A stretch of DNA of 64,000 nt, taken from an uncultured virus (IMG/VR IMGVR_UViG_3300044733_004038) (lineage: Duplodnaviria; Heunggongvirae; Uroviricota; Caudoviricetes). This document shows, one piece after another, positions 43,562-63,999 of the stretch. The translations under genes and the position numbers were made by a program. The notes under the pieces were generated by a model that worked only from the letters and a program-made list of their open reading frames with translations, made no database searches and was not told where the DNA came from. The stretch's first letter is position 1. Each line of letters begins with the position of its first letter. The stretch lies in the IMG/VR virus record IMGVR_UViG_3300044733_004038; one strand, 5' to 3'.

Positions 43562-43927
43562 CTACGACTCAACAATTTCTATCCACACTTGGTTTGGTTC
43601 AAACCATCTATAGTTGCCATCAGGCTTCGGTGTTGGTGGTTGCCAATCGTAGTTGGCATCTAGAGTCCACGAACCGTATGGTTGTGGTAAGACGAACACA
43701 TCAGCATCAGGCAGATAAATAAAGCCAATGCCTGCGTATCGTTTGCGAATGTTGCCGTTGTATGAAGTTCGTTTACAGGTCAGACCTGCGTTCCATTCTA
43801 GGCTTTCATAAAACTGTTCCCACGCCTCCGAAGAACCGCCAACACCGTTTTGTGTAACTGTTTCATCAACGCCTGTCAAAACTTTGACCACAACATTGTT
43901 GCTATCTAAATATGCGTAATGTGCCAT
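43562..43927 (-). CDS. small partner protein P1 of glycine-rich gene
   Basis: MAHYAYLD..KRTSYN..YAGIG family; TAATG coupling. Confidence 0.8.
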   Translation of the reverse strand: MAHYAYLDSNNVVVKVLTGVDETVTQNGVGGSSEAWEQFYESLEWNAGLTCKRTSYNGNIRKRYAGIGFIYLPDADVFVLPQPYGSWTLDANYDWQPPTPKPDGNYRWFEPNQVWIEIVES

Positions 43928-44820
43928 TATGCCCAACTCACATATCCCGTGCCAGCCGTAATTGTTGCCCGTTTGTATCCACCGCTTGCTGCGCTTTCCG
44001 TGCCAGTTAAACCTGTTCCGAAAGTAATCGTTCTTGAATCTGAATAGCGAAGTATCACTACACCACTACCGCCTGCACCAGAGTCACCTGTTGTATCTAT
44101 TTTTGCACCACCCGCACCAACCGAAACAACAACATTGGTTGAAGGCGAAATATCAAGTGGGGTTTCTAAACTACCGCCACCGCCTGTTGCTGTAACTGTT
44201 GAACGAAACCCACCAGCACCACCGCCACCGTGACCAGCAGTTCCTGATACGAGTGAAGCACCACCACCACTACCTGTATTGACTGTGCCAGCACCTGCAT
44301 TCGTGCCACCCGAAGCAGCAGCACCGCCACCGCCCGAACCACCTGCTCCGCTTGCGCCACCACCACCGCCACCAGCACGAGTAACAGATGTTCCAGTAAT
44401 GTCGTTTGCTACACCAGCACCACCAGCACCGTTTGCACCGACACCACCAACCGCACCAGCACCGCCACCACCACCACCGCCGTTAGTTCCAGTAGTATTT
44501 ACGCCACCTGCAAAACCTTGACCACTTTCACCAGTTCCGCCAACACCAGTTGTGCCACCACCAGCACCACCACCAGAACCGCCTGCTAAACCGTTTCCAT
44601 TTTGATATTTACCGCCACCACCACCGCCACGAGAAACAATGGTTGAGAATATGCTTGCATTTCCGTTATTTCCAGTAAAATAACCATCAAGAGGAATATC
44701 AAATGCTCCGCCTGAACCGCCACCGCCGATAACAAGATAATCAACAGTTATGCCACCAACAGCACTTACGATTGTCGGTGTGTTGCTAGCCGAAACATAA
44801 CCCATCAACCTTGCAGCCAT
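43927..44820 (-). CDS. glycine-rich adhesin-like protein G1
   Basis: DYLV.GGGG...GGSGVVILRY; polyglycine tracts. Confidence 0.8.
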   Translation of the reverse strand: MAARLMGYVSASNTPTIVSAVGGITVDYLVIGGGGSGGAFDIPLDGYFTGNNGNASIFSTIVSRGGGGGGKYQNGNGLAGGSGGGAGGGTTGVGGTGESGQGFAGGVNTTGTNGGGGGGGAGAVGGVGANGAGGAGVANDITGTSVTRAGGGGGGASGAGGSGGGGAAASGGTNAGAGTVNTGSGGGASLVSGTAGHGGGGAGGFRSTVTATGGGGSLETPLDISPSTNVVVSVGAGGAKIDTTGDSGAGGSGVVILRYSDSRTITFGTGLTGTESAASGGYKRATITAGTGYVSWA

Positions 44821-44823
44821 AAA

Positions 44824-45048
44824 CTAAACCTCACTCTCGATAACAGGACTTGGTGGTGCAACAAAATCTTGTGTCGCCTCATCATATGTCCAGCCGATAC
44901 CAGCATAAGTTTTGCCTGCTGTATCAAAAAAAGTTTCAACCCAAGTGCCCTGATAGCGGTCAGGGTTCGCTTCCAAAAACTCTTGTGTAACACAATGAAC
45001 ATCGATAACAACATTGTCATCGTTAAGTTGAGCAAAAAAAGTTTTCAT
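44824..45048 (-). CDS. partner protein P2
   Basis: FAQL..NVV..GTWVET..YAGIG. Confidence 0.8.
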   Translation of the reverse strand: MKTFFAQLNDDNVVIDVHCVTQEFLEANPDRYQGTWVETFFDTAGKTYAGIGWTYDEATQDFVAPPSPVIESEV

Positions 45049-45920
45049 ACTTTAAACCTGACATAAACAACCCCAGCCGCACCTGCGCCACCTGTGCTAC
45101 CTGAACTATTTGCACACGACCCACCACCAGCACCATAATTTACGCCTGCGTTGCCGTTGCCTGTAGTTTTACCTGCAACGCCACCATTTCCAGCCGTGCC
45201 ACCAGTTGTTTTACCGCCACCGCCACCGCCTGCACCCGCATAATATGTTGCACCAGTTATAAACGGTGAAATGTCAATACCGTTTCCGCCTGTGCCCCCA
45301 TTAGTTGCGCCGCCATTGCCGCCAACGCCACCTGCACCACCGCCACCGCCACCCGTAAATTCTGCTGTGCTTCCGCCGTTGCCGCCGTTGTTGCCGTTTG
45401 CTAATTCCAAACTAACTGCACCTGTAGCACCTGCTGAACCGCCTGCTCCTGAACCGCCTGCACTATCTTTTTGGCCTGCTTGTGCAACTGCACCTGTTGA
45501 ACCGCCACCAGCACAAGCAATTACACTTCCAACAGAACTACCTAACCCTGTTGTTGCGCTATTTGCGCCACCAGCACCAGCACCACCAGCACCAACATCA
45601 ACGGCATAAGTAGCGGCAGTCAAATAAATTGTGGTTGCAGAATTTATGCCAACTACAGCACCGCCACCCGCACCGCCGCCGCCATATAAACTCGAACCAG
45701 CGTGACCGCCACCGCCACCACCGACAAGCAAAACGTCAAACAAACCTGCTGTAGTAACAACAAGATTGCTGTCGCTCGTAAAAGTTAGAAGCGTACAGTT
45801 CTGTGAAGAAACAGTTATAGAACTTGAAGTGCCACCAGTCGCCACACCATAACCTGTAGTAGCAACAATAGTGCTTGTGCTTCCAGCACTCACATATCCG
45901 AGTTCACGCCTGTTCGGCAT
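45045..45920 (-). CDS. glycine-rich protein G2
   Basis: MPNRRELGYVS leader; ends VRFKV. Confidence 0.8.
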   Translation of the reverse strand: MPNRRELGYVSAGSTSTIVATTGYGVATGGTSSSITVSSQNCTLLTFTSDSNLVVTTAGLFDVLLVGGGGGGHAGSSLYGGGGAGGGAVVGINSATTIYLTAATYAVDVGAGGAGAGGANSATTGLGSSVGSVIACAGGGSTGAVAQAGQKDSAGGSGAGGSAGATGAVSLELANGNNGGNGGSTAEFTGGGGGGAGGVGGNGGATNGGTGGNGIDISPFITGATYYAGAGGGGGGKTTGGTAGNGGVAGKTTGNGNAGVNYGAGGGSCANSSGSTGGAGAAGVVYVRFKV

Positions 45921-45922
45921 AG

Positions 45923-46201
45923 TTAAACCTCACTCTCGATAACAGGTGCGATGAACTCGTCAGCAACAGCGTCATAGGTGTAACCGATACCTGCGTATCT
46001 GCCACGAATGTTCCCGTTGTATGAGGTGCGTTTGCAGGTTAAACCTAGATGTATTGCTTGCGATTCATAAAACTTTTCCCACGCTTCTGTTGAACCGCCA
46101 ACAACTTTGCCGTCAGTATCAACTTGTGTTTGTGTTTCGTCAATGCCAACAATTACTTTGACAACGACATTGTTTCCATCAAGAAATGCGTAATGAGCCA
46201 T
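45923..46201 (-). CDS. partner protein P3
   Basis: MAHYAFLD..KRTSYN..YAGIG. Confidence 0.8.
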   Translation of the reverse strand: MAHYAFLDGNNVVVKVIVGIDETQTQVDTDGKVVGGSTEAWEKFYESQAIHLGLTCKRTSYNGNIRGRYAGIGYTYDAVADEFIAPVIESEV

Positions 46202-47133
46202 TATTGATACCAACTAACATTTCCAGAACCAGTATAAATGGTTGCTCGCTTATATCCGCCCGATGCAGCCGATTCTGCGCCTGCTACACCAGCACCAAAA
46301 AGAATACTATAAGCGTCTGAGTAGCGAAGAATAACTACACCGCTTCCACCTTGACCACCGTTACCGTCAATAGCGCCGCCAGAACAGCCGCCACCGCCAC
46401 CACCAAGATTTGCAGCACCACGACCAGCATCACCATATTTGCTTGTGCTACCGCCACCACCAGTTCCGCCCATACCGTTGCTAGACCAGTTTCCTCCGCC
46501 TCCTCCACCGCCTCCTCCGTATGTTACGGAGGTTCCAGTAATGCTTGAAGCCGTACCGTTTCCACCATTACCAGACGAACCAGTACTTACGCTATTAGTG
46601 CCGACAGCACTTGTGCCACCGCCACCACCAGCAGAGTTTATTGAACTATTTGTTCCACCTGCGTAACCTTCGTTACTTGTTCCAGTACCACCAGATTTTA
46701 AAGTTGCGCTAAAAGCACCACCACCTCCACCACCACAACCACCGTTTAAACCTGCTCCATCTGGACTTCCACCTCCGCCACCGCCAGATACTGAAACCGT
46801 GCTAAATGAACTTGCTGAACCAGATGTTCCACTTGCACGAGTAACACCACCAGCGCCACCTGCCCCAACGGCTACTGCATAATTTGTGTAAGTAGAAAGC
46901 GATAATGCTGAAGGCAGAGAACCACCGCCACCAGTTGCGGTTACTGTGCAACGCATACCACCAGCACCGCCACCACCAGCGCAAAAGCCTGTAGCAAGTT
47001 CACCGCCACCTCCACCTCCGCCACCAAGAACTAAGTAATCAACGGTTAAAGAAGTTGGGACACCAGTAACATTCGCCAAAATTACTGTCGGTGTGTTTGA
47101 AGCCGAAACATAACCCATCAACCTTGCAGCCAT
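46201..47133 (-). CDS. glycine-rich protein G3
   Basis: MAARLMGYVS leader; ends GNVSWYQ. Confidence 0.8.
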   Translation of the reverse strand: MAARLMGYVSASNTPTVILANVTGVPTSLTVDYLVLGGGGGGGGELATGFCAGGGGAGGMRCTVTATGGGGSLPSALSLSTYTNYAVAVGAGGAGGVTRASGTSGSASSFSTVSVSGGGGGGSPDGAGLNGGCGGGGGGAFSATLKSGGTGTSNEGYAGGTNSSINSAGGGGGTSAVGTNSVSTGSSGNGGNGTASSITGTSVTYGGGGGGGGGNWSSNGMGGTGGGGSTSKYGDAGRGAANLGGGGGGCSGGAIDGNGGQGGSGVVILRYSDAYSILFGAGVAGAESAASGGYKRATIYTGSGNVSWYQ

Positions 47134-47473: not shown

Positions 47474-49174
47474 TTAGATTTTGAACCTGACAAAAACTGC
47501 GCCAGCAGCACCGTTGCCCGATTGTAATGCGCTAACTGTTCCGCCACCTGCTGCACCGTAATTTGAGCCGTTGTTTCCTGCGCCAGTTGTTTTACCTGCA
47601 ACACCGCCGTTACCTGCTGCCCCACCAACACTTGCACCGCCACCGCCTCCACCTGCACCCGCATAATAGGTTGCGCCAGTAATAAAACCGCTTATGTCTA
47701 TGCCGTTACCGCCAGTTCCACCAGTCCCAGAAGTTGAACCACCGCCAGTTCCACCAGCACCGCCACCACCTCCAGCACCATTACTTGTAGTTGCGCCACC
47801 ACCATTGTTCCCAACATTACTGTCGCAAGAAACTGAACCTGTGCCACTTAAGGCAGCGTCAATAACACCACCACCAGATGCACCCGTTGGATATGCGTTT
47901 AACTGACCGTCATAACAACCACCACCGCCACCGCCAGCAACAGAAATCTGTGAACCGATAGATGACTTTAAACCGATGCCACCCGTTGCGGTTGCGGTTG
48001 TTCCAGCACCGCCAGCACCAACATCAAGCGTGTAAGTTGCAGCAGGCAAATAGATTGTGGTCGTGCTGGTAATACCTAAAACACCGCCACCACCTCCACC
48101 GCCGCCAGGCACAGAATCCGTGTAACTGCCACCACCTGCACCGCCGCCGCCGATTAAACAGACATCAAACAATCCACCAGTAGAAACAACAAGATTGCTG
48201 TCGCTCGTAAACGACAACAGCGTGTAACTCTGATTACCAACAGTAATCGTTGAACTACTGCCGCCCGAAGCAACACCATAACCACTCAAAGTTGCTACAG
48301 CACTCGTCTTGCTACGAATATAAACAATGCCTGAACCGCCTGTGCCGCCCGTTGCACCGCCACCGCCTCCACCACCTGAACCCGTGTTTGCTGCTGCCGA
48401 TGAACCTACCGCAGTTACTCCGCCTGCACCACCAACTGAACTACCACCAGCACCAGCCGAACCGCTACGAGTGCCACCGCCGCCACCGCCACCCTTAAAT
48501 AATGCGCTTCCACCAATAAATGCACTGACATCATAACCAGCACCGCCGTTTCCGCCGTTTCCACCGCTTGCGTTTGCACCAACGGCTGTTACGCCACCGC
48601 CACCGCCAGCGCCAGAGCCATTACTTTGCACGCCGTTACCGCCTGCAAAACCATTTACACCTGCATTAGTTGCAGCACCTCCGACAATTTCTGGAGCCGA
48701 ACCTGTGCCACTACCACCACCGCCACACGCACCGCTTTTGTTTGTGACAGCCCCATAATTAACGCCAGTTCCGCCACCGCCAATACCAAAACTGCGACCA
48801 GTTGAGTTAATGTTTGAACCTAAACCTTCCGTATTACTTGCGCCACCAGCACCAACATCAACTGCGTAAGTTCCAGCAGTTAAATAAATTGTGCTTTCAA
48901 TAACGCCACCTGCGCCACCACCGCCACCGCTATCTGTGCCAATACGACCACTAGAACCGCCAGCACCGCCACCAAACATAAGGACATCAAATAAACCATC
49001 AGAGGTTACAACAAAGTTGCCGTCAGAAGTAAAAGTATAAAGATTATAGTTAGAACCACCAGCAGTAATACTTGACGATGTGCCGCCCGAACCTACACCG
49101 TAAGCGCCTACTTGCCCAACAATAGTCGGGGTATTACCGCTACTTACATATCCGAGTTCACGCCGATTCGGCAT
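47474..49174 (-). CDS. glycine-rich protein G4 (two tandem domains)
   Basis: Two copies of the YGV..GG.SS.IT...FTSD.N.VV...GLFDV domain. Confidence 0.82.
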   Translation of the reverse strand: MPNRRELGYVSSGNTPTIVGQVGAYGVGSGGTSSSITAGGSNYNLYTFTSDGNFVVTSDGLFDVLMFGGGAGGSSGRIGTDSGGGGGAGGVIESTIYLTAGTYAVDVGAGGASNTEGLGSNINSTGRSFGIGGGGTGVNYGAVTNKSGACGGGGSGTGSAPEIVGGAATNAGVNGFAGGNGVQSNGSGAGGGGGVTAVGANASGGNGGNGGAGYDVSAFIGGSALFKGGGGGGGTRSGSAGAGGSSVGGAGGVTAVGSSAAANTGSGGGGGGGATGGTGGSGIVYIRSKTSAVATLSGYGVASGGSSSTITVGNQSYTLLSFTSDSNLVVSTGGLFDVCLIGGGGAGGGSYTDSVPGGGGGGGGVLGITSTTTIYLPAATYTLDVGAGGAGTTATATGGIGLKSSIGSQISVAGGGGGGCYDGQLNAYPTGASGGGVIDAALSGTGSVSCDSNVGNNGGGATTSNGAGGGGGAGGTGGGSTSGTGGTGGNGIDISGFITGATYYAGAGGGGGGASVGGAAGNGGVAGKTTGAGNNGSNYGAAGGGTVSALQSGNGAAGAVFVRFKI

Positions 49175-49430: not shown

Positions 49431-50315
49431 CTAAACCTTGAACCTTACATAAACAATACCGCTACCGCCTGCACCGCCATTTGAACCGTTGACTGTGCTG
49501 CCGCCACCACTACCGCTATTTGCTGAAGCAGAATTACCTGTGCCTGATGTTTTGCCAGCGTTTGAATTTGCCGATGAGTTACCACCAGCACCGCCAGAAC
49601 TAGTGCCACCGCCGCCACCGCCAGTTGATTTGTAAGTTGCACTGCCTGAAATAAATGCACTGACATCACCGCCATTACCACCAGTACCGCCAGTAGTGGT
49701 ACCTGAGGTGCCACCTGCGGCTGAATAACCGCCACCGCCACCGCCAGCCCTTAAGTCTCCATCACGAGAACCAATGCCGCCATCATTACCTAAATTTGCA
49801 AAATTAGCAATACCACCAGCACCACCACGACCACCACCACCACCACCAGAACCACCTGGACCAGCGGCGTTGTCGTTAGAGTGTCCAAAACCACCACCAG
49901 AAGCAACAAGTTTTGTGCCGACTGCGGTGAAACTTCCTGCTGTTCCAAAATTTTGACCCACACCACCAGCACCACCAGCACCGATTGTAATTGTTTGATT
50001 TGCGTCTAGATAAAGTGTTGATGTTGTAAAAAGACCTACAAGTTGTCCAGCACCGCCACCGCCACCAGCAACACCACCACCACTACCACCAGCACCACCG
50101 CCACCGCCAGCAACTAAAACGTCAAACAAACCTGCGGTAGTAACCGTCAAAGTTCCTGTGCTTGTAAAAGTTAGAAGCGTGTATGCCTGTGCTGACACAG
50201 TAATACTTGACGAAGTTCCGCCTGTCGCAACACCGTAACCCGTTTGAGTGCCGTTTACATAGACGGCACTTGTTGTTGGCTCTGCGCTGACATATCCAAA
50301 TGTCCTGCGACCCAT
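49431..50315 (-). CDS. glycine-rich protein G5
   Basis: MGRRTFGYVS leader; ends VRFKV. Confidence 0.8.
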   Translation of the reverse strand: MGRRTFGYVSAEPTTSAVYVNGTQTGYGVATGGTSSSITVSAQAYTLLTFTSTGTLTVTTAGLFDVLVAGGGGGAGGSGGGVAGGGGGAGQLVGLFTTSTLYLDANQTITIGAGGAGGVGQNFGTAGSFTAVGTKLVASGGGFGHSNDNAAGPGGSGGGGGGRGGAGGIANFANLGNDGGIGSRDGDLRAGGGGGGYSAAGGTSGTTTGGTGGNGGDVSAFISGSATYKSTGGGGGGTSSGGAGGNSSANSNAGKTSGTGNSASANSGSGGGSTVNGSNGGAGGSGIVYVRFKV

Positions 50316-51214: not shown

Positions 51215-53170
51215 TTATTGCGGTAGTCTACTGCGTAAATACGCGCACTCTAGAGCAAGGGCTTCTTCGTACCGAATTCCGTATCTATTTCCGGCAGCCT
51301 GGTGTTCTTGCACCATGCCAATTCCGTCCTCAAAGCGCTCTTCCTGCTCTTCCCATTCGTCGTAGCACAGGATGCCGTAGGCAAACGGATCAACGCCTTC
51401 AGCCTCAAATGCTTCTTTAACTCGTTGCGCCACCAACCCAACATGCCACCTCGCGCCGTCTCCTTTTTTCTGAACAGCGTCTTTAAACTTGAACTGTTGA
51501 TACTCGACGTTACTCCAAGCGCGCAGAACTGCCTCGTTGATGTCGCCGATCTGCTCTTTCTCTCTTTCATCCGATGTGCTAATTGTTGCAGTGTCGGCGT
51601 AAACTACCGTCCACCTACGAGCCGCTCCACCAAGTGAGTATGTTGAATCAGTGCGAGGTCGTAAGACCTGAGTATCTGTGTTTGTTGCAAAAAAAGTTAC
51701 AGTCGCGCTTCCATCAGTTTCAGAACCGCCGGTGACTTGTATTCTTGCATCATAGTCATTGACCGATTCGTTGTTGCCAGAGGTATGAATATCCATGTAC
51801 CAGGTTGCTGCAGTGTTTTGCTTTCCAAGTTCCAGTGTGCCATCAGCACGCAAAAGAGCGGAGCGCTCATTGGAAATATAAGAATCAAAAACATTTGTTC
51901 CACCTGTGTAGTATAAACCAGTATCGGCATTATCAACTCGTAGTCCTACAAAACCAGAACCACGAGCAACAAAGAAACTTTGGACTTTGTACGTTCCAAG
52001 ATTTACGGCATCAAAACCCCATGCATAGTGTGAACCACCAGTTGCAGCGGTTGATGCTTCTTTGTTGTCTACAAGTCCAAGTTCAAAACCAGTCATTGCT
52101 GAAGCATGTGAATTCGCGTCCATCAAAACATTTGCGTTATGCGCCCATACTTTTGTGAACGGATTTACATAGGCAGTTGCTGTTCCCGATGGAGTTGAGG
52201 CAGATTGTGCTGTACCGTTGGCGAGATACCAACCTTCAACCGTGATGCTTGAACCATTTGCTGCCCAATCAGTGATAAATCCGCTGTACTTTGTTGGGCT
52301 GTGAGCAGTATCAATAATCATGCCTTTGCGCAAAAGTCTTCTATTCGCCTCGCTGATTGTTGAAGCAGGGACAACAGTTGTTGCTGTATAGGTTGCGCCA
52401 GCTAAAGTCAGCGTTGGAGGTGGAGCTAAAACATCGGCAAAGAAAGAAACTGCGTCTCTGTCAGTGTAGATAGAGATATCCGCCTCGTTGGTTACACCCA
52501 AAACTTCGGCGGCGCTATTAAAGTCCGAGCCACTTGGATAAAGTCTTACCGCAAAACCAGTCGCGCTATCTTCGTTGCCGTAAGGCGCCGACATGATTCT
52601 TTGGCCCTCACGAAGAAGGTCACCGTTAAGATTTTCTGGATTAAGGATTTTTGCGCCACGGTCTGCAACCCAAACAACTTCTCGACCGCCAGTATCTATT
52701 CGACTAGAAAGCACATAGTTGCCATCTGGAATTGTTACAAATACACAATTTGCTCTCAGGATTCCATTGTCAGTGTAGGTGACAGCGCCAGTTCGTGCTT
52801 GTGCCGCGGCATCAAAAGCGGCAGTGTCATCTGTAACGCCATCGCCAACTGCGCCATAATCTGACACAGAAACTGGCAGAGAGGTCTTATTGACTTTTGC
52901 ATTGATTTGAGTTTGAATTGCCGAGGTGACACTGTTCACGTAGCCGAGCTCGGTTGATGACACGTCACCGATAGTCGTTGTGCTTGGTAATACAACGTTG
53001 CCAGTAAAAGTAGGCGAGCTTAGCGGTGCGTAAGAAGCAAGTGAGCCTGCTTCTACATTTGCAGCTGAAGGATTTACCTCCCAGGCAGAACCATTCCAAG
53101 TCCACGTGCGGGAGCCGGCAGTGTATACTTGGTTGAGAGATGGAGAATTTGGAAAATCAATTGCTGGCAT
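51215..53170 (-). CDS. tailspike/tail fibre with C-terminal intramolecular chaperone (peptidase S74)
   Basis: DYGAVGDGVTDDTAAF; TSDEREK...H.GLVAQ...YGIRYEE. Confidence 0.85.
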   Translation of the reverse strand: MPAIDFPNSPSLNQVYTAGSRTWTWNGSAWEVNPSAANVEAGSLASYAPLSSPTFTGNVVLPSTTTIGDVSSTELGYVNSVTSAIQTQINAKVNKTSLPVSVSDYGAVGDGVTDDTAAFDAAAQARTGAVTYTDNGILRANCVFVTIPDGNYVLSSRIDTGGREVVWVADRGAKILNPENLNGDLLREGQRIMSAPYGNEDSATGFAVRLYPSGSDFNSAAEVLGVTNEADISIYTDRDAVSFFADVLAPPPTLTLAGATYTATTVVPASTISEANRRLLRKGMIIDTAHSPTKYSGFITDWAANGSSITVEGWYLANGTAQSASTPSGTATAYVNPFTKVWAHNANVLMDANSHASAMTGFELGLVDNKEASTAATGGSHYAWGFDAVNLGTYKVQSFFVARGSGFVGLRVDNADTGLYYTGGTNVFDSYISNERSALLRADGTLELGKQNTAATWYMDIHTSGNNESVNDYDARIQVTGGSETDGSATVTFFATNTDTQVLRPRTDSTYSLGGAARRWTVVYADTATISTSDEREKEQIGDINEAVLRAWSNVEYQQFKFKDAVQKKGDGARWHVGLVAQRVKEAFEAEGVDPFAYGILCYDEWEEQEERFEDGIGMVQEHQAAGNRYGIRYEEALALECAYLRSRLPQ

Positions 53171-53605: not shown

Positions 53606-54495
53606 CAGAAAGTCCACGCAATCGTGCCAGTTGCAAGAAACGTAAATATTTTGTATCCGCCCGTGGTTGTTTGTGTGCCAACTGTCAATGTGGTTGGGTC
53701 TGCGAATGTGTCAAGAGTTCGCATAATAACGATTCCTGAACCGCCAGCACCACCTGCACCTGCGCCTTGACCGTCATTACGACCACCGCCACCGCCACCC
53801 GTGTTTGCTGTGCCAGCCTGCGGAAGTGTGCTTGCATTTCCACCGTTACCGCCACCACCATTTCCGCCAGAAGCAACAGCCCCAGAAGGAGAATTACCAC
53901 CACCACCGCCACCGTAGTAAACACTTGAACCTGATATCACATTCACTACGCCAACACCACCTGCATTAGTGCCCGACCCAAATGTATTTCCACCAGTATT
54001 ACTTGCACCGCCACCGCCACCGCCGAAACCGCCAGTCGTAGAACCACCCGCACGACCTTGATTGGCTGTGCCTGCTGAGCCATTCGTATTCAAATTATAA
54101 CCACCACCACCACTCCCACCAGTAGCAGACGCATTAGTGCCACCACCACGACCACCACCAGTTGAAGTAATAGTTGTCAAAGCCGTGCCAGCAACAGAAC
54201 TATCTGTGCCAGATGTGTTTGACGCACCACCAGCACCAACCGTCGCTGTGTAAACAGTTCCGCTAACTGGTGTGAACGCTGTTTCTAAAGTCGTAGCATC
54301 ACCGCTTACCGCAACAGTGCTTCTTACGCCACCAGCACCACCACCGCCACCGTTAAAAGTTGCGTTGTTGCAGTTTCCCCCACCACCACCGCCAGCGACA
54401 ACAAGATAATCAACAACAACAGGGACAGCACTTACAGTTTGCACAACTACAGGGTAAGCCGAAACATATCCAAGCGGTCTGCGTGAATTAGTCAT
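53605..54495 (-). CDS. glycine-rich protein G6
   Basis: MTNSRRPLGYVS leader. Confidence 0.8.
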   Translation of the reverse strand: MTNSRRPLGYVSAYPVVVQTVSAVPVVVDYLVVAGGGGGGNCNNATFNGGGGGAGGVRSTVAVSGDATTLETAFTPVSGTVYTATVGAGGASNTSGTDSSVAGTALTTITSTGGGRGGGTNASATGGSGGGGYNLNTNGSAGTANQGRAGGSTTGGFGGGGGGASNTGGNTFGSGTNAGGVGVVNVISGSSVYYGGGGGGNSPSGAVASGGNGGGGNGGNASTLPQAGTANTGGGGGGRNDGQGAGAGGAGGSGIVIMRTLDTFADPTTLTVGTQTTTGGYKIFTFLATGTIAWTF

Positions 54496-54498: not shown

Positions 54499-54747
54499 CT
54501 AGCCCAGTAACGCTTGTGGGCGAGTCGGAAAAACAATCAACTTAGGGTCAGCGTTTTGTGATGGCAAGTCTCGTAGTTCTTCACGGTATTCTTGCCACGC
54601 TGTTTTGTCGGCTGTGCAATCTGCTATCTGTGTCCAGTCCGATGCTTGTAGTTCACGGTTACGCCAGTTTCTAAACCGTTCAAAATACCATTCGTTAGGT
54701 ATTTCGTTTGCGTTTTCGTGTGGTGCAACAAAATCTAGGTAGTTCAT
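54499..54747 (-). CDS. tail fibre assembly chaperone-like protein
   Basis: RN..L..SDWTQ..D...W..YR..LRDLP. Confidence 0.75.
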   Translation of the reverse strand: MNYLDFVAPHENANEIPNEWYFERFRNWRNRELQASDWTQIADCTADKTAWQEYREELRDLPSQNADPKLIVFPTRPQALLG

Positions 54748-55193
54748 TATGCAGCCTCATAAACAAAATTAAAGTTAATGATATCGGTTGTTGCAAATGT
54801 AAACGGTTGAGTAGCACCGACATTGGCGTGAAACAAAAAATTTCCCGTTACTTGTGGCAACTTAAATAGAACTGTTGTAGTTGAATCTAAATATCCTGCG
54901 CCAAGATATTGGTCGGTTGTGCTTGTATCAACATAACTTATGTTGTTTGTGTAAAAATTGTTTCCTAATTTTGCTGTAACTGGCAAACTTATTTTAGGAC
55001 CGCTTCCCATAGTTGTTGTGCTTCCGAAAGTTAATTGACCGTAAACATGAACCAAAAAACCAATCTGTGCATAACGAAAATTGTTTGTGCCATTACCAAG
55101 AGTTATGTTTGTGTAAGAAGGCGTGTAGGCAACATAAGCAGTTACATTGTTGCTCGGAACTGCTTGAACAATTTGGCTAGAAGTATAAGCCAT
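54747..55193 (-). CDS. beta-rich fibre-tip-like protein Z1
   Basis: MAYTSSQIVQAVP leader; YTPS..N.TLGNG..Y.QIG..V...SLPV. Confidence 0.72.
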   Translation of the reverse strand: MAYTSSQIVQAVPSNNVTAYVAYTPSYTNITLGNGTNNFRYAQIGFLVHVYGQLTFGSTTTMGSGPKISLPVTAKLGNNFYTNNISYVDTSTTDQYLGAGYLDSTTTVLFKLPQVTGNFLFHANVGATQPFTFATTDIINFNFVYEAA

Positions 55194-55195: not shown

Positions 55196-55471
55196 TTAAA
55201 CCTCACTCTCGATAACAGGTGCGATGAACTCGTCAAGGTCAGCGTCATAGGTGTATCCGATACCTGCGTATCTGCCACGAATGTTCCCGTTGTATGAAGT
55301 GCGTTTGCACAACAAACCTTGATGCTGTGGTTGGTTTTGATAGAACTGTTCCCACGCTTCTGAAGAACCGCCGACTTCAACATCACCGTCTAGTTGTGTA
55401 ACTGTTTCATCAACGCCGACAATAACTTTGACAACTTTGTTTCCGTATCCAATAAATGCGTAATGTGCCAT
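55196..55471 (-). CDS. partner protein P7
   Basis: MAHYAF..KRTSYN..YAGIG. Confidence 0.8.
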   Translation of the reverse strand: MAHYAFIGYGNKVVKVIVGVDETVTQLDGDVEVGGSSEAWEQFYQNQPQHQGLLCKRTSYNGNIRGRYAGIGYTYDADLDEFIAPVIESEV

Positions 55472-56352
55472 TACAAAGCCCAACTCACATTACCCGAGCC
55501 AGCAGTAATCGTAGCCCGTTTGTAGCCACCCGAAGCAGCCGACTCTGTGCCTGTTAAACCTGCGCCGATAGTGATTGTATAAGTATCTGCGTAACGCAAA
55601 ATGACTACGCCACTACCACCGTTGCCACCGTTATAGCCAACAAAAGTATTATTGCCACCGCCACCGCCGCCACCGCCAGTATTGGCTGTGCCTGCTGAAC
55701 CATTTGCACTTCTTCCACCATTACCGCCACCGTTTGAACCTGTGCCTTCATTGCTTTGATTTTGTGAGTTACCACCGCCACCGCCACCAGCGTAAGTAAC
55801 ACTTGTGCCAGTAATGCTTACAGCCTGACCTGCACCGCCATTTGCGTTTGTTGCTGCTGCACCCGCACCACCACCACCACCAGTAAGACCTGATGGGTGA
55901 GTGCCACCATTCGCACCATTATTTCCTTGAACAGGGCTGGCAGTTCTTGTGCCAGCATTAGCACCTGTGCCACCGCCAGCAGATGAACCACCATTACCGC
56001 CAGCCGTTTGTGGTCCACCACCAGTTCCGCCACCAGTTGAAGTTATGGAATCAAAAATACTACTTCCACCTTGTGTTCCATTATTGCTTGTGCTGCCAGT
56101 ACCTCCACTGCCTACCTGTATTGAATAATTTGTATTTAACGCACACAACAATGCGGTTTCAAGCGAACCACCACCACCTGTTGCTGTAACTGAACTGCGT
56201 AAACCGCCAGCACCAGCACCAGACCCTTGATTGTTACCGCCACCGCCACCGCCTGCGACAACAAGAAAATCAACGGTAATTGGATTAGTAATATTTGCTA
56301 CGACTACAGGGTAAGCCGAAACATATCCAAGCGGTCTGCGTGAATTAGTCAT
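55471..56352 (-). CDS. glycine-rich protein G7
   Basis: MTNSRRPLGYVS leader; ends GNVSWAL. Confidence 0.8.
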   Translation of the reverse strand: MTNSRRPLGYVSAYPVVVANITNPITVDFLVVAGGGGGGNNQGSGAGAGGLRSSVTATGGGGSLETALLCALNTNYSIQVGSGGTGSTSNNGTQGGSSIFDSITSTGGGTGGGPQTAGGNGGSSAGGGTGANAGTRTASPVQGNNGANGGTHPSGLTGGGGGAGAAATNANGGAGQAVSITGTSVTYAGGGGGGNSQNQSNEGTGSNGGGNGGRSANGSAGTANTGGGGGGGGNNTFVGYNGGNGGSGVVILRYADTYTITIGAGLTGTESAASGGYKRATITAGSGNVSWAL

Positions 56353-57592: not shown

Positions 57593-57970
57593 CTACGGCT
57601 CGTCAATTTCTATCCACACTTGGTTTGGTTCAAACCACGCATAGTTGCCTTCAGGTCTTGGGGTTGGCGGTTGCCAATTGTGGTTCTCATCTAAAGTCCA
57701 TGAAGGATATGGTTGTGGTGTTATGAACACATCGTTGATGAAGTCGTATGTGTCACCAATGCCTGCGTAACGTTTACGAAAGTTTGAGTTGTAAGAAGTT
57801 CGCTTGCAGGTAAGCCCCAAATTCCACGATTGATTTTCGTAGTATTGTTCCCACGCTTCAGTAGAACCACCGACTTCGATATCGCCGTCTAGTTGCGTAA
57901 CTGTTTCATCAACGCCCGTAAGTACCTTGACAACAACATTATTTTCGTTAAGAAATGCGTAATGCGCCAT
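57593..57970 (-). CDS. partner protein P8
   Basis: MAHYAFL..; close paralog of P1. Confidence 0.8.
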   Translation of the reverse strand: MAHYAFLNENNVVVKVLTGVDETVTQLDGDIEVGGSTEAWEQYYENQSWNLGLTCKRTSYNSNFRKRYAGIGDTYDFINDVFITPQPYPSWTLDENHNWQPPTPRPEGNYAWFEPNQVWIEIDEP

Positions 57971-58785
57971 TATGCCCAACTCACATTCCCGCTACCAGCG
58001 GTAATTGAAACTATTGTATTTGCGCCGCTGGTTGTTGATGATGATGTCAAACCCGCACCAACAGTGATTGTGCCTGACGCTGTTGGATATCGCAAAATAA
58101 CTATCCCACTACCACCGTTGGTTCCAGTACCACCACCACCGCCACCTGTGTTTGCTGAACCACCAGTGCTAGACGACCCACCACCACCAGTTCCACCAGG
58201 AGCATTATTGTCTCCTGCACCACCACCACCACGAGTAACTGCCGAACCAGTTATAGAACTAGATAAACCATCTCCACCGTGACCGTCACCGTCTGTGTTA
58301 CCTGCTTCGCCAGCACCGCCACCACCCGAAAATGTCCCAGAGCCACCCACAAATCCCTGAACAGGCGTTGCCCGTGCTGCTGCTGCACCAGTATATGCAC
58401 CACCAGATGAACCACCGCTTAAACTTGGGCAACCAGCACCGCCAGTACCGCCGCCGCCCGTAGAAATTACTGTAGAAAAAACACTATCGGTTCCGCTACG
58501 ACTTGTAGTACCATTAAGTACGCCACCAGCACCAACAGAAACAATATAATTTGTATTTTTAAAAACCGACAATGGTGTTTCTGCAGCACCACCACCACCT
58601 GTAGTTTCTCCGCTTGTGCTATTGCGATAACCACCAGCACCACCACCGCCACCATAAGAAACTGCGCCCGAACCGCCACCAGCAATAACTAAGTATTCTA
58701 CGGTAAGACTTGGGGTAGTAGCAGCCTGACCCCAATTGCCTAGAGTCGGTTGTTGAGTTAGTGTTCTAGGAGAATATCTAGACAT
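57970..58785 (-). CDS. glycine-rich protein G8
   Basis: EYLVIAGGG; ends GNVSWA. Confidence 0.8.
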   Translation of the reverse strand: MSRYSPRTLTQQPTLGNWGQAATTPSLTVEYLVIAGGGSGAVSYGGGGGAGGYRNSTSGETTGGGGAAETPLSVFKNTNYIVSVGAGGVLNGTTSRSGTDSVFSTVISTGGGGTGGAGCPSLSGGSSGGAYTGAAAARATPVQGFVGGSGTFSGGGGAGEAGNTDGDGHGGDGLSSSITGSAVTRGGGGAGDNNAPGGTGGGGSSSTGGSANTGGGGGGTGTNGGSGIVILRYPTASGTITVGAGLTSSSTTSGANTIVSITAGSGNVSWA

Positions 58786-59649: not shown

Positions 59650-60129
59650 TTATTCTTTTTCTATTTGAGGGAAAATGCCATACGACAGTGTAATTCTAGG
59701 GTCAATCCCAATAGCCATATGCTTAGTACCTTTTGGTATTATCAATAAATCAGAAGGTTCTAGAATATATTCTTCTGTGTTATTTATTTTATATAGAACT
59801 TTTCCATGCAATCCTAAAAGTAAAACATCGGTTATGTCATCATGCACTGGACTTTTAATTCCGGAAACTAATGAAGAAAAAATACATAAATTAGATTCCG
59901 TATTATGCATATTGAATTCATTTTCTAATTTACTATAAATATCTATAAAATCATTATCTAAATGAACATCTTTTATTTGAAAAATACTTTCAAATATAAA
60001 ATCGTTTAAATAGTTGCTTGAAATTCTAGACAAAAAATGGTTTCTGTTTAATAATCCAGACAAATTATTAAAATCATATTCACCAAAAGATAAATACTTT
60101 TTTATATATTGTGTTTTAATTAAACTCAT
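59650..60129 (-). CDS. JmjC/cupin-like 2OG oxygenase, AT-rich
   Basis: H.D..DV.L....G....LEP.DLL.IPKG..H. Confidence 0.7.
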   Translation of the reverse strand: MSLIKTQYIKKYLSFGEYDFNNLSGLLNRNHFLSRISSNYLNDFIFESIFQIKDVHLDNDFIDIYSKLENEFNMHNTESNLCIFSSLVSGIKSPVHDDITDVLLLGLHGKVLYKINNTEEYILEPSDLLIIPKGTKHMAIGIDPRITLSYGIFPQIEKE

Positions 60130-61037
60130 GCTGTCACTGTTCCCGTACCTGCGGTAAATCTATAGATTTTATAACCACCTGTATCTGTCAAAGTATATGT
60201 CAAACCAGCACTGACAGTTAAATTAGGGGATGTATTCAAATACCTGACTATTACAACACCAGACCCCCCAGCCGAACCAGCCTCGCTACCACCAAGAGAA
60301 CCACCACCGCCACCACCGCCAAGATTTACTGTCCCAGCCGTAGAGGCTCCATTTGTACCTTGCCCCGTTCCGCCACCTCCGCTGCCACCAGAACCACCAG
60401 AAACCGCTCCGCCATCGTATGTATTTCCTCCACCTCCACCACCGCCTGCATATGTAACAGCAGAGCCGCTATATGAATTGGATGTACCACCGCCTCCATT
60501 TCTTCCGCTACCGCCAGAAGACGCGCCACCGCCGCCGCCGCCAGTCCATTCCTGCGTAGCACCACCTGTGCCATTTGCCCCGTTGGTTCCTTCAGCTGGT
60601 GAGAAACCGCCTTGGTTGCCAGTACCGCCGCCCTGTGGGCTATATCCACCACCACCGCCACCCGAACCGCCGTCTTGACCTCTTTGTGCTTGACCGCCAC
60701 CGTAACCGCCGCCAGTTGAGGTTATTGTGCTAAATACAGAATTTGAACCTTTAGTGTTAATACCTCCACCTGCGCCAACTGTCACTGTAGTGTTTGCACC
60801 AGCAATTAAACTTACAGCCCCTGCTGCTGTGCGAAATCCACCAGCACCACCACCACCACCATCTCGGTTTCCACCTCCACCGCCGCCTGCAACAACAAGA
60901 TAGTCAACACTAATAGGCTGACCAGACCAACTGCCTGCACCTCGTTTTCTTTGAACATCACCAAGAGTCCAGATACCAGACGCAGCAGAAGCACTTACCG
61001 TTTTTTCTGCTCCAATAATTCCACCATTAGCGCGCAT
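60126..61037 (-). CDS. glycine-rich protein G9
   Basis: MRANGGIIG..ASGIW leader. Confidence 0.8.
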   Translation of the reverse strand: MRANGGIIGAEKTVSASAASGIWTLGDVQRKRGAGSWSGQPISVDYLVVAGGGGGGNRDGGGGGAGGFRTAAGAVSLIAGANTTVTVGAGGGINTKGSNSVFSTITSTGGGYGGGQAQRGQDGGSGGGGGGYSPQGGGTGNQGGFSPAEGTNGANGTGGATQEWTGGGGGGASSGGSGRNGGGGTSNSYSGSAVTYAGGGGGGGNTYDGGAVSGGSGGSGGGGTGQGTNGASTAGTVNLGGGGGGGSLGGSEAGSAGGSGVVIVRYLNTSPNLTVSAGLTYTLTDTGGYKIYRFTAGTGTVTA

Positions 61038-61239
61038 TATGCCCAACTCACATTTCCTGAACCAGCGGTAATTGAAACTATTGTATTTGCGCCGCTAGTT
61101 GTTGATGATGATGTCACACCAGCACCAACGCGGTTGCGTGAGCAGCATGAATTGTTGTGCCAAGAGTTGCTGTTGCAGCAACGGCAATACCTCGACCGTT
61201 CGTGCTACCTGAAAGAATCGTCTTAGTAAATGTTGCCAT
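61037..61239 (-). pseudogene. collapsed adaptor + glycine-rich gene remnant
   Basis: 5' end of an X3-like gene joined out of frame to the 3' end of a G8-like gene at CCAAC. Confidence 0.85.
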
Positions 61240-61254
61240 GTGCTGCCTTCAGTC

Positions 61255-61626
61255 TTAGCCGAAAACTTGACTACTTAAGATGTTTTGATCGTCGTCTGCG
61301 CTAAAGCTAGTGCCAGAAGACGCTGATGTCAAGCGACCTTGTGCATCTACTGTGATGTTCGCTGTTGTATATGAGCCGGCTGCCACCGCTGTGTTTGCAA
61401 GCTTTGCGGCCGTTACATTTGCATCAAGAATCTTGGCAGTTGTGACAGCGTCGCTTGCGAGCTTATCGGCGGTAACCGCGCCGTTCTGCAGCTCAGTAGT
61501 TGAGATCGTCGCAACTCCAAGAGTAGCGGCCTGTAGTGACCAGATACTTCCGTCCCATGTCCACGTGCGAGTACCTTCTGTTACCGTGTCGCCCGGGGTT
61601 GGGGTTGATGGAAAATTTAGTGCCAT
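61255..61626 (-). CDS. short stalk/fibre protein Y2
   Basis: LNFPSTP..TWTW; VT..K repeats; ends DDDQNILSSQVFG. Confidence 0.75.
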   Translation of the reverse strand: MALNFPSTPTPGDTVTEGTRTWTWDGSIWSLQAATLGVATISTTELQNGAVTADKLASDAVTTAKILDANVTAAKLANTAVAAGSYTTANITVDAQGRLTSASSGTSFSADDDQNILSSQVFG

Positions 61627-62101: not shown

Positions 62102-63070
62102 TTAGAATGTTATACTCCCCGTAGCCGTAAAAGTATATACTCTGTATCCTGTTGGATTTGTTACGGTTGGAGATCCTGTTGTTGCTGTTGCTAATGGCAA
62201 ACTATCTGGATAGCGAATAATTACTACACCGCTACCACCGTTACCACCGAATGTGCCTGTGTTATAACCTGGGTCAGTGTTTGTCTTACCGCCACCTCCA
62301 CCGCCAAGATTTGCTGTGCCTGCCGTACCCGATGAAGGAACTCCAGCACCGCCTGCTCCACCACCACCTGAACCACCAGAGCCTGGAGTGTTTTGTGAGT
62401 CACCAGGTCTAAATCCTCCACCACCGCCACCGCCACGAGTTACCGAAGTGCCTGTAATGCTTGATGCTGAACCTGCACCACCATTACCGCAAACATTACC
62501 GCTAACATTGCCACCAATAGCGCCAGCGCCACCTCCACCACCACAACCACGACCTCCACTGGACCCGCCATTAAAGCCTTGAACAGGTGAAGCCGTGCGA
62601 GTTCCGCCACCAAATGAACCCTCACCTACACCGCCGCCACCTGAACCACCAGCGCGACCAGCAGAAGCGTTACCAGCACCACCACCGCCACCAGTGGCAG
62701 TAATTGATGCCAGAACAGAGTCGTTACCATCGCCACCAGCGCCTGGGTTATTAACTGATGTTCCTCCAGCGCCAACTGTGACTGTATGCGCAGTGCCTTT
62801 TGCAAGTGTTAATTGCGTTTCTAAAGTGCCACCGCCACCGGTTGCTGTAACTGTGCTACGCAAACCGCCAGCACCACCGCCACCGCCGCCATAAGTATTG
62901 TTGCTACCAGCGCCTCCGCCAGCAAGAACTAGATAATCAATTGTTATGTCTGTACTAGGCCAATTGCTTGCGCCTTTTTCTCTCTGCGCATCGCGAACAG
63001 CCCAAATACCAGACGCAGCGCCAGCGCTTATTGTCTTTTTTGCGCCAATGATTCCGCCGTTAGAGCCCAT
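62102..63070 (-). CDS. glycine-rich protein G10
   Basis: MGSNGGIIG..ASGIW leader. Confidence 0.8.
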   Translation of the reverse strand: MGSNGGIIGAKKTISAGAASGIWAVRDAQREKGASNWPSTDITIDYLVLAGGGAGSNNTYGGGGGGAGGLRSTVTATGGGGTLETQLTLAKGTAHTVTVGAGGTSVNNPGAGGDGNDSVLASITATGGGGGAGNASAGRAGGSGGGGVGEGSFGGGTRTASPVQGFNGGSSGGRGCGGGGGAGAIGGNVSGNVCGNGGAGSASSITGTSVTRGGGGGGGFRPGDSQNTPGSGGSGGGGAGGAGVPSSGTAGTANLGGGGGGKTNTDPGYNTGTFGGNGGSGVVIIRYPDSLPLATATTGSPTVTNPTGYRVYTFTATGSITF

Positions 63071-63124
63071 TTACGTCCAACTTACGTTTTCGCTGCCAGC
63101 AAATGAAGATAGAAACTGTGCCAT
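63071..63124 (-). pseudogene. 17-codon mini-ORF, probable collapsed glycine-rich gene
   Basis: MAQFLSSFAGSENVSWT*; its end matches the AGSGNVSW C-terminus of G3/G7/G8. Confidence 0.65.
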
Positions 63125-63477
63125 CAGCTAATCTCCTCGTAAGAGCACACCGCCTCAAGGTCAGAGTTTGCTGACGCTGTGAGTCGCAAAGTGTCTCCTT
63201 CTTCAAGGTAGATTGACTTAGAAATAATATCTAAAGTTGCATCTGCTGGAACCGAAACTGTTTTAGCAACATGATAAGCAGTAGAAGAACGGAATATGTC
63301 TACGTTCACATCTGCCGCACTTGTCCCGTCAACATTTGATACATAGAGAGCATTTACTTTAAAAACTTTTCCTGACGAACCACTGTTTGTAACGATTGCT
63401 GTTGCAGAAGTCGTTACAGCAAGAACTGCTGTTTTGCCTGTGATTGTTGCTACGTTTACTATGTTTGGTGCTGCCAT
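63124..63477 (-). CDS. adaptor-like protein X4 (second family)
   Basis: MAAPNIVNV.TITGKT...IYLEEGD...SYEEIS. Confidence 0.75.
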   Translation of the reverse strand: MAAPNIVNVATITGKTAVLAVTTSATAIVTNSGSSGKVFKVNALYVSNVDGTSAADVNVDIFRSSTAYHVAKTVSVPADATLDIISKSIYLEEGDTLRLTASANSDLEAVCSYEEIS

Positions 63478-63486
63478 GATTTATCC

Positions 63487-63999
63487 TTAACCTCCAAAGA
63501 CAATCGCCATAGCAATTGCTTTTCCTGTTGATGCTTTTGTATCTATTTGTGTTTGAATTGCGCTTGTAACTCCGTTTAAGTATCCAATTTCTGTGTTAGA
63601 TACGTTCTCGACTACAGTCTGATAAACGGTAGGTGTAGTCCATTCTAATCCAGTTGTCGTGCCGGTGTTAACAGTAAGAACTTGTCCGTTTGTGCCAGTT
63701 CCAAGATTGTCAACCGTGTTATTCGCAGTTCCAACTAAAAGATCACCCTTTGCGTCGATCGTGCTGAGCAGCTCGTTGAACGGTGCCGCGCCAATTTCTA
63801 CCCAGGCGCCATCGTAGTAAACGAATGTTCCACCGATGTCTGAGTCGAACCACACCTGACCTGCAATAGGAGATGTTGGAGCGGTGCTTGAGATTGTAGC
63901 AAAGTTACCAGAGGCGCCGATCTCAATCCACTGACTGTCGTAGTAGATAAAAGTCTGCGCTGTGTCTGAGTCAAACCACAGCTGACCTGAGTCCGGTGC
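63487..63999 (-). CDS. 5'-truncated fibre/stalk protein Y3
   Basis: Frame open to the window edge; repeated GQ.WFDSD..TF.YYD..W.EIGA; ends GKAIAMAIVFGG. Confidence 0.75.
   Translation of the reverse strand, partial: APDSGQLWFDSDTAQTFIYYDSQWIEIGASGNFATISSTAPTSPIAGQVWFDSDIGGTFVYYDGAWVEIGAAPFNELLSTIDAKGDLLVGTANNTVDNLGTGTNGQVLTVNTGTTTGLEWTTPTVYQTVVENVSNTEIGYLNGVTSAIQTQIDTKASTGKAIAMAIVFGG

Follow-up and report, generated by a model that had tools for sequence, protein, structure and literature searches.

Ten glycine-rich genes paired with small partner genes in an uncultured lake-water siphovirus, a putative array of fibre-tip/chaperone cassettes

The stretch of DNA analysed here (the window) comprises 64,000 nucleotides (nt) from an uncultured virus of the class Caudoviricetes (IMG/VR record IMGVR_UViG_3300044733_004038). 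Between positions 43562 and 63070, it contains an array of ten glycine-rich genes (G1 to G10), which together encode 11 glycine-rich domains, and ten small partner genes (P1 to P10). From 41182 to 63999, every gene is on the minus strand and is read from high to low coordinates. The ten G open reading frames (ORFs) are all intact and encode proteins of 271-566 amino acids (aa) with 29-35% glycine. The P genes encode 74-125 aa, counted from ATG. These numbers of genes and domains had been proposed in an initial annotation of the DNA, and they were confirmed by the ORFs and by matches to phrog_2295 (G) and phrog_7759 (P). The array continues past the end of the window.

P is located directly 3' of G in nine of the ten pairs. 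The initial annotation described a strict one-to-one succession of G and P, which holds for these nine and fails for G9; G9 overlaps a JmjC/cupin-like oxygenase gene by ATGA, and P9 begins 74 nt further. The coupling by TAATG and ATGA overlaps that it reported is present. TAATG is shared at four G-to-P junctions (G8/P8, G7/P7, G3/P3, and G1/P1), TGATG at one (G6/P6), and ATGA at one (G2/P2), and the other three show gaps of 2, 22, and 66 nt. When the 33 genes were put in random order 200,000 times, nine or more G-to-P adjacencies never arose. The array is real, and the pairing is well above chance.

The Pfam domain found in the G proteins is PF21722 (Gly_rich_2 glycine-rich domain). Its gathering cut-off of 24.3 bits is passed by nine of the ten G (35.2-83.5 bits), while G1 has no match; all ten match phrog_2295. 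All ten P match phrog_7759, and phrog_14370 is the better match for P2 and P4. Neither Pfam nor NCBIfam has a family for any of the ten P, tail-fibre assembly families included. There are more than 7,900 database relatives in phrog_7759, virus-only and unannotated. Homologues of P are present in Synechococcus, Pelagibacter, and Methylophilales phages, among others. The P proteins occur in two forms. The long forms (P1, P4, P6, P8, P9, and P10) have a C-terminal module (..PQPYPSW.LD..W..P.P....W.E..), and the short forms (P2, P3, P5, and P7) lack it and end with ..AP(PSP)VIES/GEV. In the short forms, the last codons contain GAGG, which serves the next gene as its ribosome-binding site.

In the order of reading, the first pair is G10 (62102..63070, 322 aa, end ..TGSITF, PF21722 E 5.6e-15) and P10 (61679..62035, 118 aa, phrog_7759 E 4e-45). 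G9 (60126..61037, 303 aa, end ..TGTVTA, PF21722 E 1.1e-10) starts from ATG at 61037, and its ORF also opens with TTG at 61046. It is separated from P9 (59210..59575, 121 aa, phrog_7759 E 3e-36) by the oxygenase gene (59650..60129, 159 aa; PF08007 JmjC_2 E 3.3e-5, 23.9 bits against a cut-off of 22; phrog_4992). G8 (57970..58785, 271 aa, end ..SGNVSWA, PF21722 E 1.7e-8) and P8 (57593..57970, 125 aa from ATG) follow, then G7 (55471..56352, 293 aa, end ..SGNVSWAL, PF21722 E 5e-19) and P7 (55196..55471, 91 aa), and G6 (53605..54495, 296 aa, end ..TGTIAWTF, PF21722 E 3e-23) and P6 (53270..53605, 111 aa). G5 (49431..50315, 294 aa, end VRFKV, PF21722 E 3e-17) precedes P5 (49177..49428, 83 aa). G4 (47474..49174, 566 aa, end VRFKI) consists of two tandem domains, with PF21722 in two stretches, and precedes P4 (47137..47451, 104 aa, phrog_14370 and phrog_7759). 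The last three pairs are G3 (46201..47133, 310 aa, end ..SGNVSWYQ, PF21722 E 1.7e-19) and P3 (45923..46201, 92 aa), G2 (45045..45920, 291 aa, end VRFKV, PF21722 E 4e-17) and P2 (44824..45048, 74 aa, phrog_14370 E 3e-18), and G1 (43927..44820, 297 aa, end ..TGYVSWA, phrog_2295 E 3e-21) and P1 (43562..43927, 121 aa), the last gene of the array.

The type of P follows the C-terminus of G, as the initial annotation had noticed, with one deviation. The four VSW-ended G (G1, G3, G7, and G8) are all paired with P of the CKRTSYN type. G2 and G4 (VRFK) are paired with the FLEANP type, and G6 and G10 with the MAHFAEL type (MAHFAEL/WKQTSYN in P10). G5 ends with VRFKV like G2 and G4 but takes a P of its own subtype. 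The identity of P N-terminal domains is correlated with that of the C-terminal tails of G (Mantel r 0.67, p 0.012, 21 pairs) and of the G core (r 0.40, p 0.021), and not with that of the N-terminal leader (r -0.04, p 0.55).

The same pairing is observed in other viral contigs. A set selected by G contains 74 viral loci outside the window with 88 G genes. P is found within 60 nt downstream of 64 of them and at 61-1500 nt for nine; ten have no P, and five are at the contig end. All fetched loci together gave 138 distinct pairs of neighbours, which are not phylogenetically independent. Among them, VSW-ended G are followed by CKRTSYN P in 29 cases, by WxQTSYN P in one, and by other P in 15. G with xGS(I/V)xx ends are followed by WxQTSYN P in 36 cases, by CKRTSYN P in four, and by others in seven, and short-ended G by WxQTSYN P in eight and by others in two. 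In 79 loci anchored on X117, a gene adjacent to G10 that is described below, there are 0-6 G and 0-3 P per locus. The P profile misses divergent P-like genes in these loci, and their escape indicates that the P family is wider than phrog_7759. In loci L218 (14444-16443) and L210 (11279-11878), a G gene is accompanied by a divergent P-like small gene and two genes of ~180-200 aa with oxygenase-like C-terminal ends.

Of the 65 columns conserved at 80% or more in the alignment of the 11 G domains, 54 are Gly. Between the conserved glycine motifs lie variable segments rich in indels, and the gaps cluster there. G1, G3, and G6-G10 have a small beta-unit at the C-terminus (..GGYK..TITAG.GNVSWA and variants), whereas G2, both domains of G4 (G4a and G4b), and G5 have it at the N-terminus and end just after the last core strand (..VRFKV). 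This difference in position looks like a circular permutation. In the alignment, a block of ~44 residues that is N-terminal in the other G is found near the C-terminus of G1, and this displacement accounts for the lack of a Pfam match of G1. The block (..GGAGGFRSTVTATGGGGSLE..VGAGG) was relocated from the N- to the C-terminal part of the domain with the frame still open, which hints that the glycine lattice tolerates altered strand order.

The N-terminal leaders of G are 25-60 residues long. G1-G7 have ..GYVSA.. leaders, G9 and G10 have MxxNGGIIGA.. leaders (MGSNGGIIGA.. in G10), and G8 has its own. Leaders are 73% identical between G6 and G7, 76% between G1 and G3, and 58% between G9 and G10, yet the C-terminal tails differ. 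Leader classes have been shuffled independently of the remainder of the protein.

The fold of G was analyzed with an AlphaFold2 model of G7, built from an alignment of 26 rows; the other nine G were placed by sequence alignment. Models were compared with 48,161 representative chains of PDB. The G7 model is confident (predicted local distance difference test, pLDDT, 89.0; predicted template modelling score, pTM, 0.87) and shows little regular helix or sheet except a beta-sandwich. The closest chains were 9d93_Qa from the tail tip of mycobacteriophage Bxb1 (Z 13.1-13.2, root-mean-square deviation (rmsd) 3.1 A, 157-161 aa, 30-32% identity) and 7ypx_A, the fibre protein gp24 of cyanophage Pam3 (Z 12.8, rmsd 2.5 A, 165 aa, 30% identity). 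G7 superposes on these solved brush heads far above the next rows, which start near Z 5 and are other polyproline-II/polyglycine-II bundle proteins: the glycine-rich domain of ALK/LTK (Z 5.0), a springtail polyproline-II antifreeze protein (Z 4.1), and Obg (Z 3.6). A repeat of the comparison gave the same ranking, and the top two of Foldseek are likewise the same. The Z scores indicate that the nearest solved relatives of G are Pam3 gp24 and the Bxb1 brush. The matches to two virion tail proteins suggest that G is a polyglycine "brush" receptor-binding head, and a polyglycine-II character of G is likely on the same fold matches. The G profile had no match among PDB sequences. A nucleotide search with the array and a tblastn search with G7 against 50,697 phage records gave no match either, the low-complexity G query being probably filtered by BLAST.

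The initial annotation compared G with the S16 adhesin gp38 and suggested structure prediction as a check. The prediction gave the polyglycine-type matches, in agreement with a receptor-binding adhesin, and its fold is supported through Pam3 and Bxb1 and not through gp38, which is absent from all returned lists of both the structure comparisons and Foldseek. S16 gp38 was therefore dropped as the nearest fold. In fold, G resembles gp38 only indirectly, through Pam3 gp24, but there is a resemblance in organization. The gp38 of the S16/T2 type is a separately encoded tip on the gp37 long tail fibre, and its glycine motifs alternate with variable segments, like those of G. The gp38 systems are not known to include a P-like partner that is dedicated to the tip and encoded downstream.

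Pam3 gp24 is the better-described relative. In excerpts of the Pam3 structure report (PMC9608196), gp24 is a virion fibre composed of a helical docking domain, a domain like tumour necrosis factor (TNF), and a glycine-rich domain, in which the motifs are conserved and the distal tip, the proposed receptor-binding part, is variable. The same excerpts liken gp24 to S16 gp38 and ALK, with rmsd 2.7 A over 52 C-alpha between gp24 and gp38, and describe the middle domain of gp38 as a beta-helix and not TNF-like (PMC9608196). G shares with gp24 the beta-sandwich and the glycine-rich head with conserved glycine motifs and variable distal ends. The N-terminal helical domain with which gp24 docks and trimerises is missing from G, where the short leader is all that there is. 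Pam3 has one fibre/helper pair (PDB 7YPX/7YFW), whereas the window has ten.

The other relative, Bxb1 chain Q (PDB 9D93), is a virion component of an actinobacterial siphovirus. In GenBank, Bxb1 gp30 is the "tail wing base", gp31 the "wing arm", and gp33 the "tail wing brush". Chain Q is probably gp33, as both have 267 residues. Polyglycine-rich or brush domains are named in mycobacteriophage tails in excerpts of two reports (PMC13252515, PMC13243795). In Bxb1, the brush is a small protein of its own, and its gene comes after the small genes of the arm and base; the G of the window likewise come after small genes, L or tfN (see below). Bxb1 has only one brush gene. Bxb1 gp34 was ruled out as an analogue of P for lack of similarity, the 94-aa gene downstream of the brush not being P-like (hhalign probability 0.15). 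Bxb1 gp31 was ruled out as an analogue of L, since BLASTP showed no similarity.

The AlphaFold2 model of P10 has pLDDT 93.6, and its C-terminal third consists of beta-hairpins. Among the 48,161 chains, the best match was the N-terminal domain of Pam3 gp25 (7ypx_a, residues 3-57; Z 5.1, rmsd 2.0 A, 53 aa, 9% identity). The next row has Z 3.0, and the tail fibre assembly protein (TFA) of Mu (5yvq_B) has Z 2.3. That the helper of the G-like fibre came out on top of an unbiased search with the P model is hard to dismiss. Excerpts of the Pam3 report describe gp25 as a chaperone encoded by the gene next to gp24, which forms a 3:3 complex with gp24 through its N-terminal beta-sandwich, covers gp24's distal loops, and was not detected in Pam3 virions (PMC9608196). 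Like gp25 after its fibre gene, P is encoded directly downstream of G. In place of the helical domain of gp25, P has the beta-hairpin module or nothing. TFAs of the Mu/lambda/P2 type are also small proteins encoded straight after the fibre, with an N-terminal domain that binds the client. P aligns weakly to the Mu TFA and lacks the conserved C-terminal TFA domain. Without the helical TFA domain, P is not placed in the TFA family. Searches of BFVD and ESM Atlas with P returned uncharacterised viral proteins only. A foldon-like nature of the C-terminal hairpins was considered and dropped, as it was based on a single Foldseek row to a fibritin-foldon fusion (E 0.36).

We favour, with modest confidence, the interpretation that the array consists of ten cassettes of a fibre tip and its cognate chaperone in an uncultured lake-water siphovirus. 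This is best read as a known kind of cassette, a head and a downstream helper as in Pam3 gp24/gp25, whose multiplication and diversification here are unusual. The P helper family is new to annotation. G would be a monomer-sized brush head, in which a small beta-sandwich carries a lattice of extended glycine-rich strands. The stem would be built from its conserved GGG motifs, and the distal tips in contact with the ligand from the variable segments that separate these motifs, as in Pam3 and Bxb1. P would be made together with its G, from a common strand and with mostly overlapping stop and start codons. The N-terminal alpha/beta domain of P may grip the beta-sandwich or C-terminal side of the nascent G, as the N-terminal domain of gp25 does, and prevent misfolding of the repetitive glycine strands until the head is mounted. 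The C-terminal hairpin module, present as an option in the long P, may oligomerise P. The heads would be mounted through exchangeable N-terminal leaders, with tfN, L, and X117 as candidate mounting parts. Gene order, families, folds, co-variation, and the recurrence in other phages are demonstrated by the analysis; that P binds G, acts as a chaperone, and is absent from virions, and that several different heads are mounted on one particle, is inferred.

Several observations weigh against this interpretation. The match to gp25 is modest, with its Z of 5.1 reached over 53 residues, and in Foldseek it has rank 11 and E 2.3. The helical C-terminal trimerisation domain of gp25 and Mu-type TFAs is missing in the P10 model. 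Neither the P profile nor the C-terminal 44 aa of P10 has a meaningful match to a solved protein among PDB sequences. The co-variation of P with the 3' part of the adjacent G can be explained by linkage, as neighbours duplicate together. In the loci selected by G, ten of 83 evaluable G genes have no P, and in related contigs some G with a ..SGSLVIA end run straight into another G with no P between them. These G genes without P indicate that P is usual and not obligatory for the fold. Five longer database proteins contain PF21722 and P in one chain, which speaks for the interpretation, but two of the G-P "fusions" show Q immediately ahead of P's Met and are possibly merged gene calls. A complex prediction of G7 (residues 20-293) with P7, both entered as alignments and run without controls, counts neither for nor against binding; its scores were 0.12 and 0.05, and the mark was 0.32.

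The initial annotation regarded G and P as two-component adhesins. In this reading, P would stay on G in the mature virion and be a part of the receptor-binding surface or shield it, much as the tail-fibre assembly proteins of Mu and Ur-lambda remain on their fibres, and a virion would display up to ten different G-P heterocomplexes. This remains an unlikely alternative. It agrees with the 10:10 count and the translational coupling, and with the correspondence of P type to G type inside and outside the window. The five single-chain proteins imply that P can travel with G, and excerpts of the Pam3 report note that the Ur-lambda and Mu chaperones are present in mature phages (PMC9608196). Against it, gp25 as the closest solved analogue of the N-terminal domain of P covers the distal loops and was undetected in virions according to the same excerpts (PMC9608196), four of the ten P have no C-terminal module, P is also fused to enzymes of cytoplasmic type, and some G have no P. 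The likeness to gp25 and the fusions to tailoring enzymes make P look like a helper, and not a proven virion part, and the claim of two-component adhesins, all on one virion, is unproven.

The enzymes came to light in relatives of P. A set selected by P contains 83 loci with 85 P genes. Immediately upstream of P, there is G in 34 cases; in 26 cases the order is G, another gene (X), and P. A non-G gene precedes X in 11 cases, X is at the contig edge in seven, and no ORF is upstream of P in seven. Out of the 44 X genes, 24 were examined, and 18 of them encode 2-oxoglutarate (2OG)-Fe(II) oxygenases above the Pfam cut-off (17 PF13759 and one PF13640). The other six comprise one HNH, two endonuclease VII, one weak F5/8-C, one kinase-like, and one DUF6445 gene. 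The JmjC gene of the window is unrelated to the X oxygenases by phmmer and occupies the same slot. Among 61 longer relatives of P, ten have PF01596/PF13578, two have other methyltransferase families, one has GT25, and five have PF21722; one further relative is named S-adenosylmethionine (SAM) methyltransferase. P is N-terminal in the five inspected enzyme fusions (among them P0241, P0262, P0264, and P0291). No literature was found on the cassette of G, oxygenase, and P, or on the P family.

These fusions, which include methyltransferases or GT25 in 13 of the 61 longer relatives by Pfam, and the position of P after 2OG oxygenases also count against a pure chaperone, because a tailoring adaptor fits them at least as well. 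Such an adaptor would recruit an oxygenase, a methyltransferase, and a glycosyltransferase to G, each P licensing its own G for shared enzymes, and the tips would be hydroxylated, methylated, or glycosylated ahead of assembly. In the window, these enzymes would be encoded by the JmjC gene (59650-60129) and, directly downstream of the array on the same strand, genes for a GT2-TPR glycosyltransferase (579 aa; PF00535, TPR) and then a methyltransferase (175 aa; Pfam Methyltransf families), which follow P1 at 41182..43438 (phrog_13126). We consider this adaptor role, on its own, quite unlikely. The recurrence of the order G, X, P in 26 of 85 cases, with 18 of 24 X being 2OG-Fe(II) oxygenases, the unrelated oxygenase family in the same slot of the window, and the fusions speak for it. 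On the other side, a single oxygenase within the array would serve ten pairs, and the proposal comes from gene context and fusions. Oxygenase and homing-endonuclease genes are common morons of fibre regions (three of the 24 X are HNH or endonuclease VII), and the fusions could merely reuse a stable domain. Outside the array, a 456-aa protein (23599-24969, plus strand) has a C-terminal 2OG-Fe(II) oxygenase domain (PF13640) and is a candidate modifying enzyme.

The array also shows traces of past turnover. The DNA identity between array copies is 60-87%. Upstream of G9, positions 61047..61236 (minus strand, repeat D16) contain a deletion scar. In it, 38 codons of an L-type gene, with 93% DNA identity to the 5' end of L3, run out of frame into the remnant of a G8-like gene, its last ~29 codons. 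The scar closes with TAATG, which is the start point of the present G9. An eleventh G cassette was lost there, and G9 is now where a P would start.

The ten G could also be alternative tips that compete for few shared mounting sites, or a store for recombination, so that a virion carries a subset and the population hedges. This possibility appears very unlikely to us. The ..GYVSA.. leader common to seven G, the small number of leader classes shuffled independently of C-terminal tail and P, the internal rearrangement of G1, and the scar with its swap at a TAATG junction speak for it. All ten ORFs are, however, intact, and copies with only 60-87% identity are old and maintained. In addition, different connectors precede different G, and contig pieces identical to the window were obtained in lake runs of 2020, 2023, and 2024. 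Among the large tail proteins of the window, there is no repeat set that matches the seven ..GYVSA.. leaders; one candidate, tfN0, is truncated by the window end.

The complete order of the block is tfN0, X117, G10, P10, tfN1, the scar, G9, JmjC, P9, L3, G8, P8, L2, M2, a 64-aa gene, G7, P7, M1, the PF16778 chaperone, G6, P6, a 651-aa fibre, tfN2, L1, G5, P5, G4, P4, G3, P3, G2, P2, G1, P1, GT2-TPR, and the methyltransferase. The tfN genes resemble N-terminal anchors of fibres: tfN0 (63487-63999), the short tfN1 (61255..61626), and tfN2 (50709-51101), with tail-fibre PHROG matches. The tfN N-termini resemble the N-terminus of the 651-aa tail fibre/spike (51215..53170), which matches PF12708 and ends in an intramolecular chaperone (PF13884 Peptidase_S74 E 2.7e-15). 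L1 (50319..50690), L2 (57138-57500), and L3 (58788-59135) encode ~120 aa each and match phrog_30535. L1 and L3 are directly upstream of G5 and G8, and L2 is upstream of M2. The order of L and then G recurs in other contigs, and L is a candidate connector. X117 (63124..63477, 117 aa), directly upstream of G10, is another candidate connector. It has 587 relatives in viral contigs; the best 80 of the 587 are 77-92% identical, a remarkable degree of conservation given how fast the surrounding fibre region evolves. X117 is always directly before a G with an MxxNG.IIG leader in the loci inspected.

A second kind of tip/helper pair is present within the array. M1 (148 aa) and a tail-assembly chaperone (82 aa; PF16778 E 1.8e-16, tail-fibre-assembly PHROGs), distinct from P, are encoded at 54499..55193. 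M2 (56547-57134, 195 aa) with its 64-aa gene (56356-56550) resembles this pair, and the end of the 64-aa protein (..AQALLG) resembles that of the chaperone. The S74-chaperone fibre, the PF16778 chaperone, and the tail-fibre PHROG matches lie in the same block as the cassettes, a context in line with fibre tips. A comparison with NCBIfam gave no match to G, P, L, M, tfN, X117, JmjC, or the PF16778 protein.

An intergenic motif (..AACTAGGTGGCT.AT..) is repeated 3' of the stop codons of P8, P9, P6, and P1, and the regions with the motif are 57501-57592, 59136-59209, 53171-53269, 43439-43561, and 51102-51214. L2 and L3 are preceded by the same 20 nt. Possibly, separate transcription units are marked in this way by a promoter or terminator cassette specific to the phage. 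A sigma-70 scan gave 33 promoter-like sites where 23.5 +/- 4.9 were expected; the number of terminators was as expected.

The plus strand encodes a major head protein, a major tail protein, a 1044-aa tape measure protein, Dit with a carbohydrate-binding module (CBM), a replication module, and WhiB. The presence of WhiB suggests that the host of the siphovirus is probably an actinobacterium. Also on the plus strand, a 1328-aa ORF (2444-6430) has portal and head-maturation-protease PHROG matches and no Pfam match, and could be a portal-region protein that is fused or very large. A domain of ~70 aa (phrog_9998) occurs on the major tail protein, Dit, and the next minor tail protein (10256-11305, 17507-19144, and 19166-21151). 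A 437-aa tail-region protein (21114-22427) has a fibre-like N-terminal part, two long runs of PPVT repeats, and a cysteine-rich C-terminus.

In 24 lake-water metagenome runs from 2020-2024, 83-98% of the sampled words of 53270-63070 were present; no RNA run was among those listed. Contig pieces without differences from the window were found in runs of 2020, 2023, and 2024, which indicates that the array is stable in nature. More than 1,000 contig "joints" were considered as cassette rearrangements and rejected; their sides of 20-31 nt with 90% likeness are in glycine-codon repeats and represent cross-matches.

Glycine-rich brush heads are known from the solved virions of Pam3 and Bxb1 as parts for host recognition. 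The ten-tip set is unusually large and is built from a known kind of part. The window is a natural experiment, with ten diverged head/helper pairs in one genome and a legible rule between helper and head, and the rule extends to unrelated contigs. Counts of such cassettes may be a guide to the number of receptors within reach of a phage, which would be of use in the prediction of host range from metagenomes. For the very large orphan family phrog_7759, a working annotation is offered, tied to tailoring enzymes. This tie is a more novel lead than the adhesin reading, and it makes the chemical modification of the receptor-binding tips of phages a testable question. A bolder proposal, improbable as it stands, is that P is a portable recognition module for polyglycine heads, both a folding helper and a handle that aims 2OG/JmjC oxygenases, methyltransferases, and glycosyltransferases at them, and that ten cognate handle/tip pairs give one particle of this phage a chemically decorated, multi-tipped apparatus for host recognition. 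If so, aquatic phages would tailor their receptor-binding tips post-translationally, in a manner reminiscent of the hydroxylation and glycosylation of collagen.

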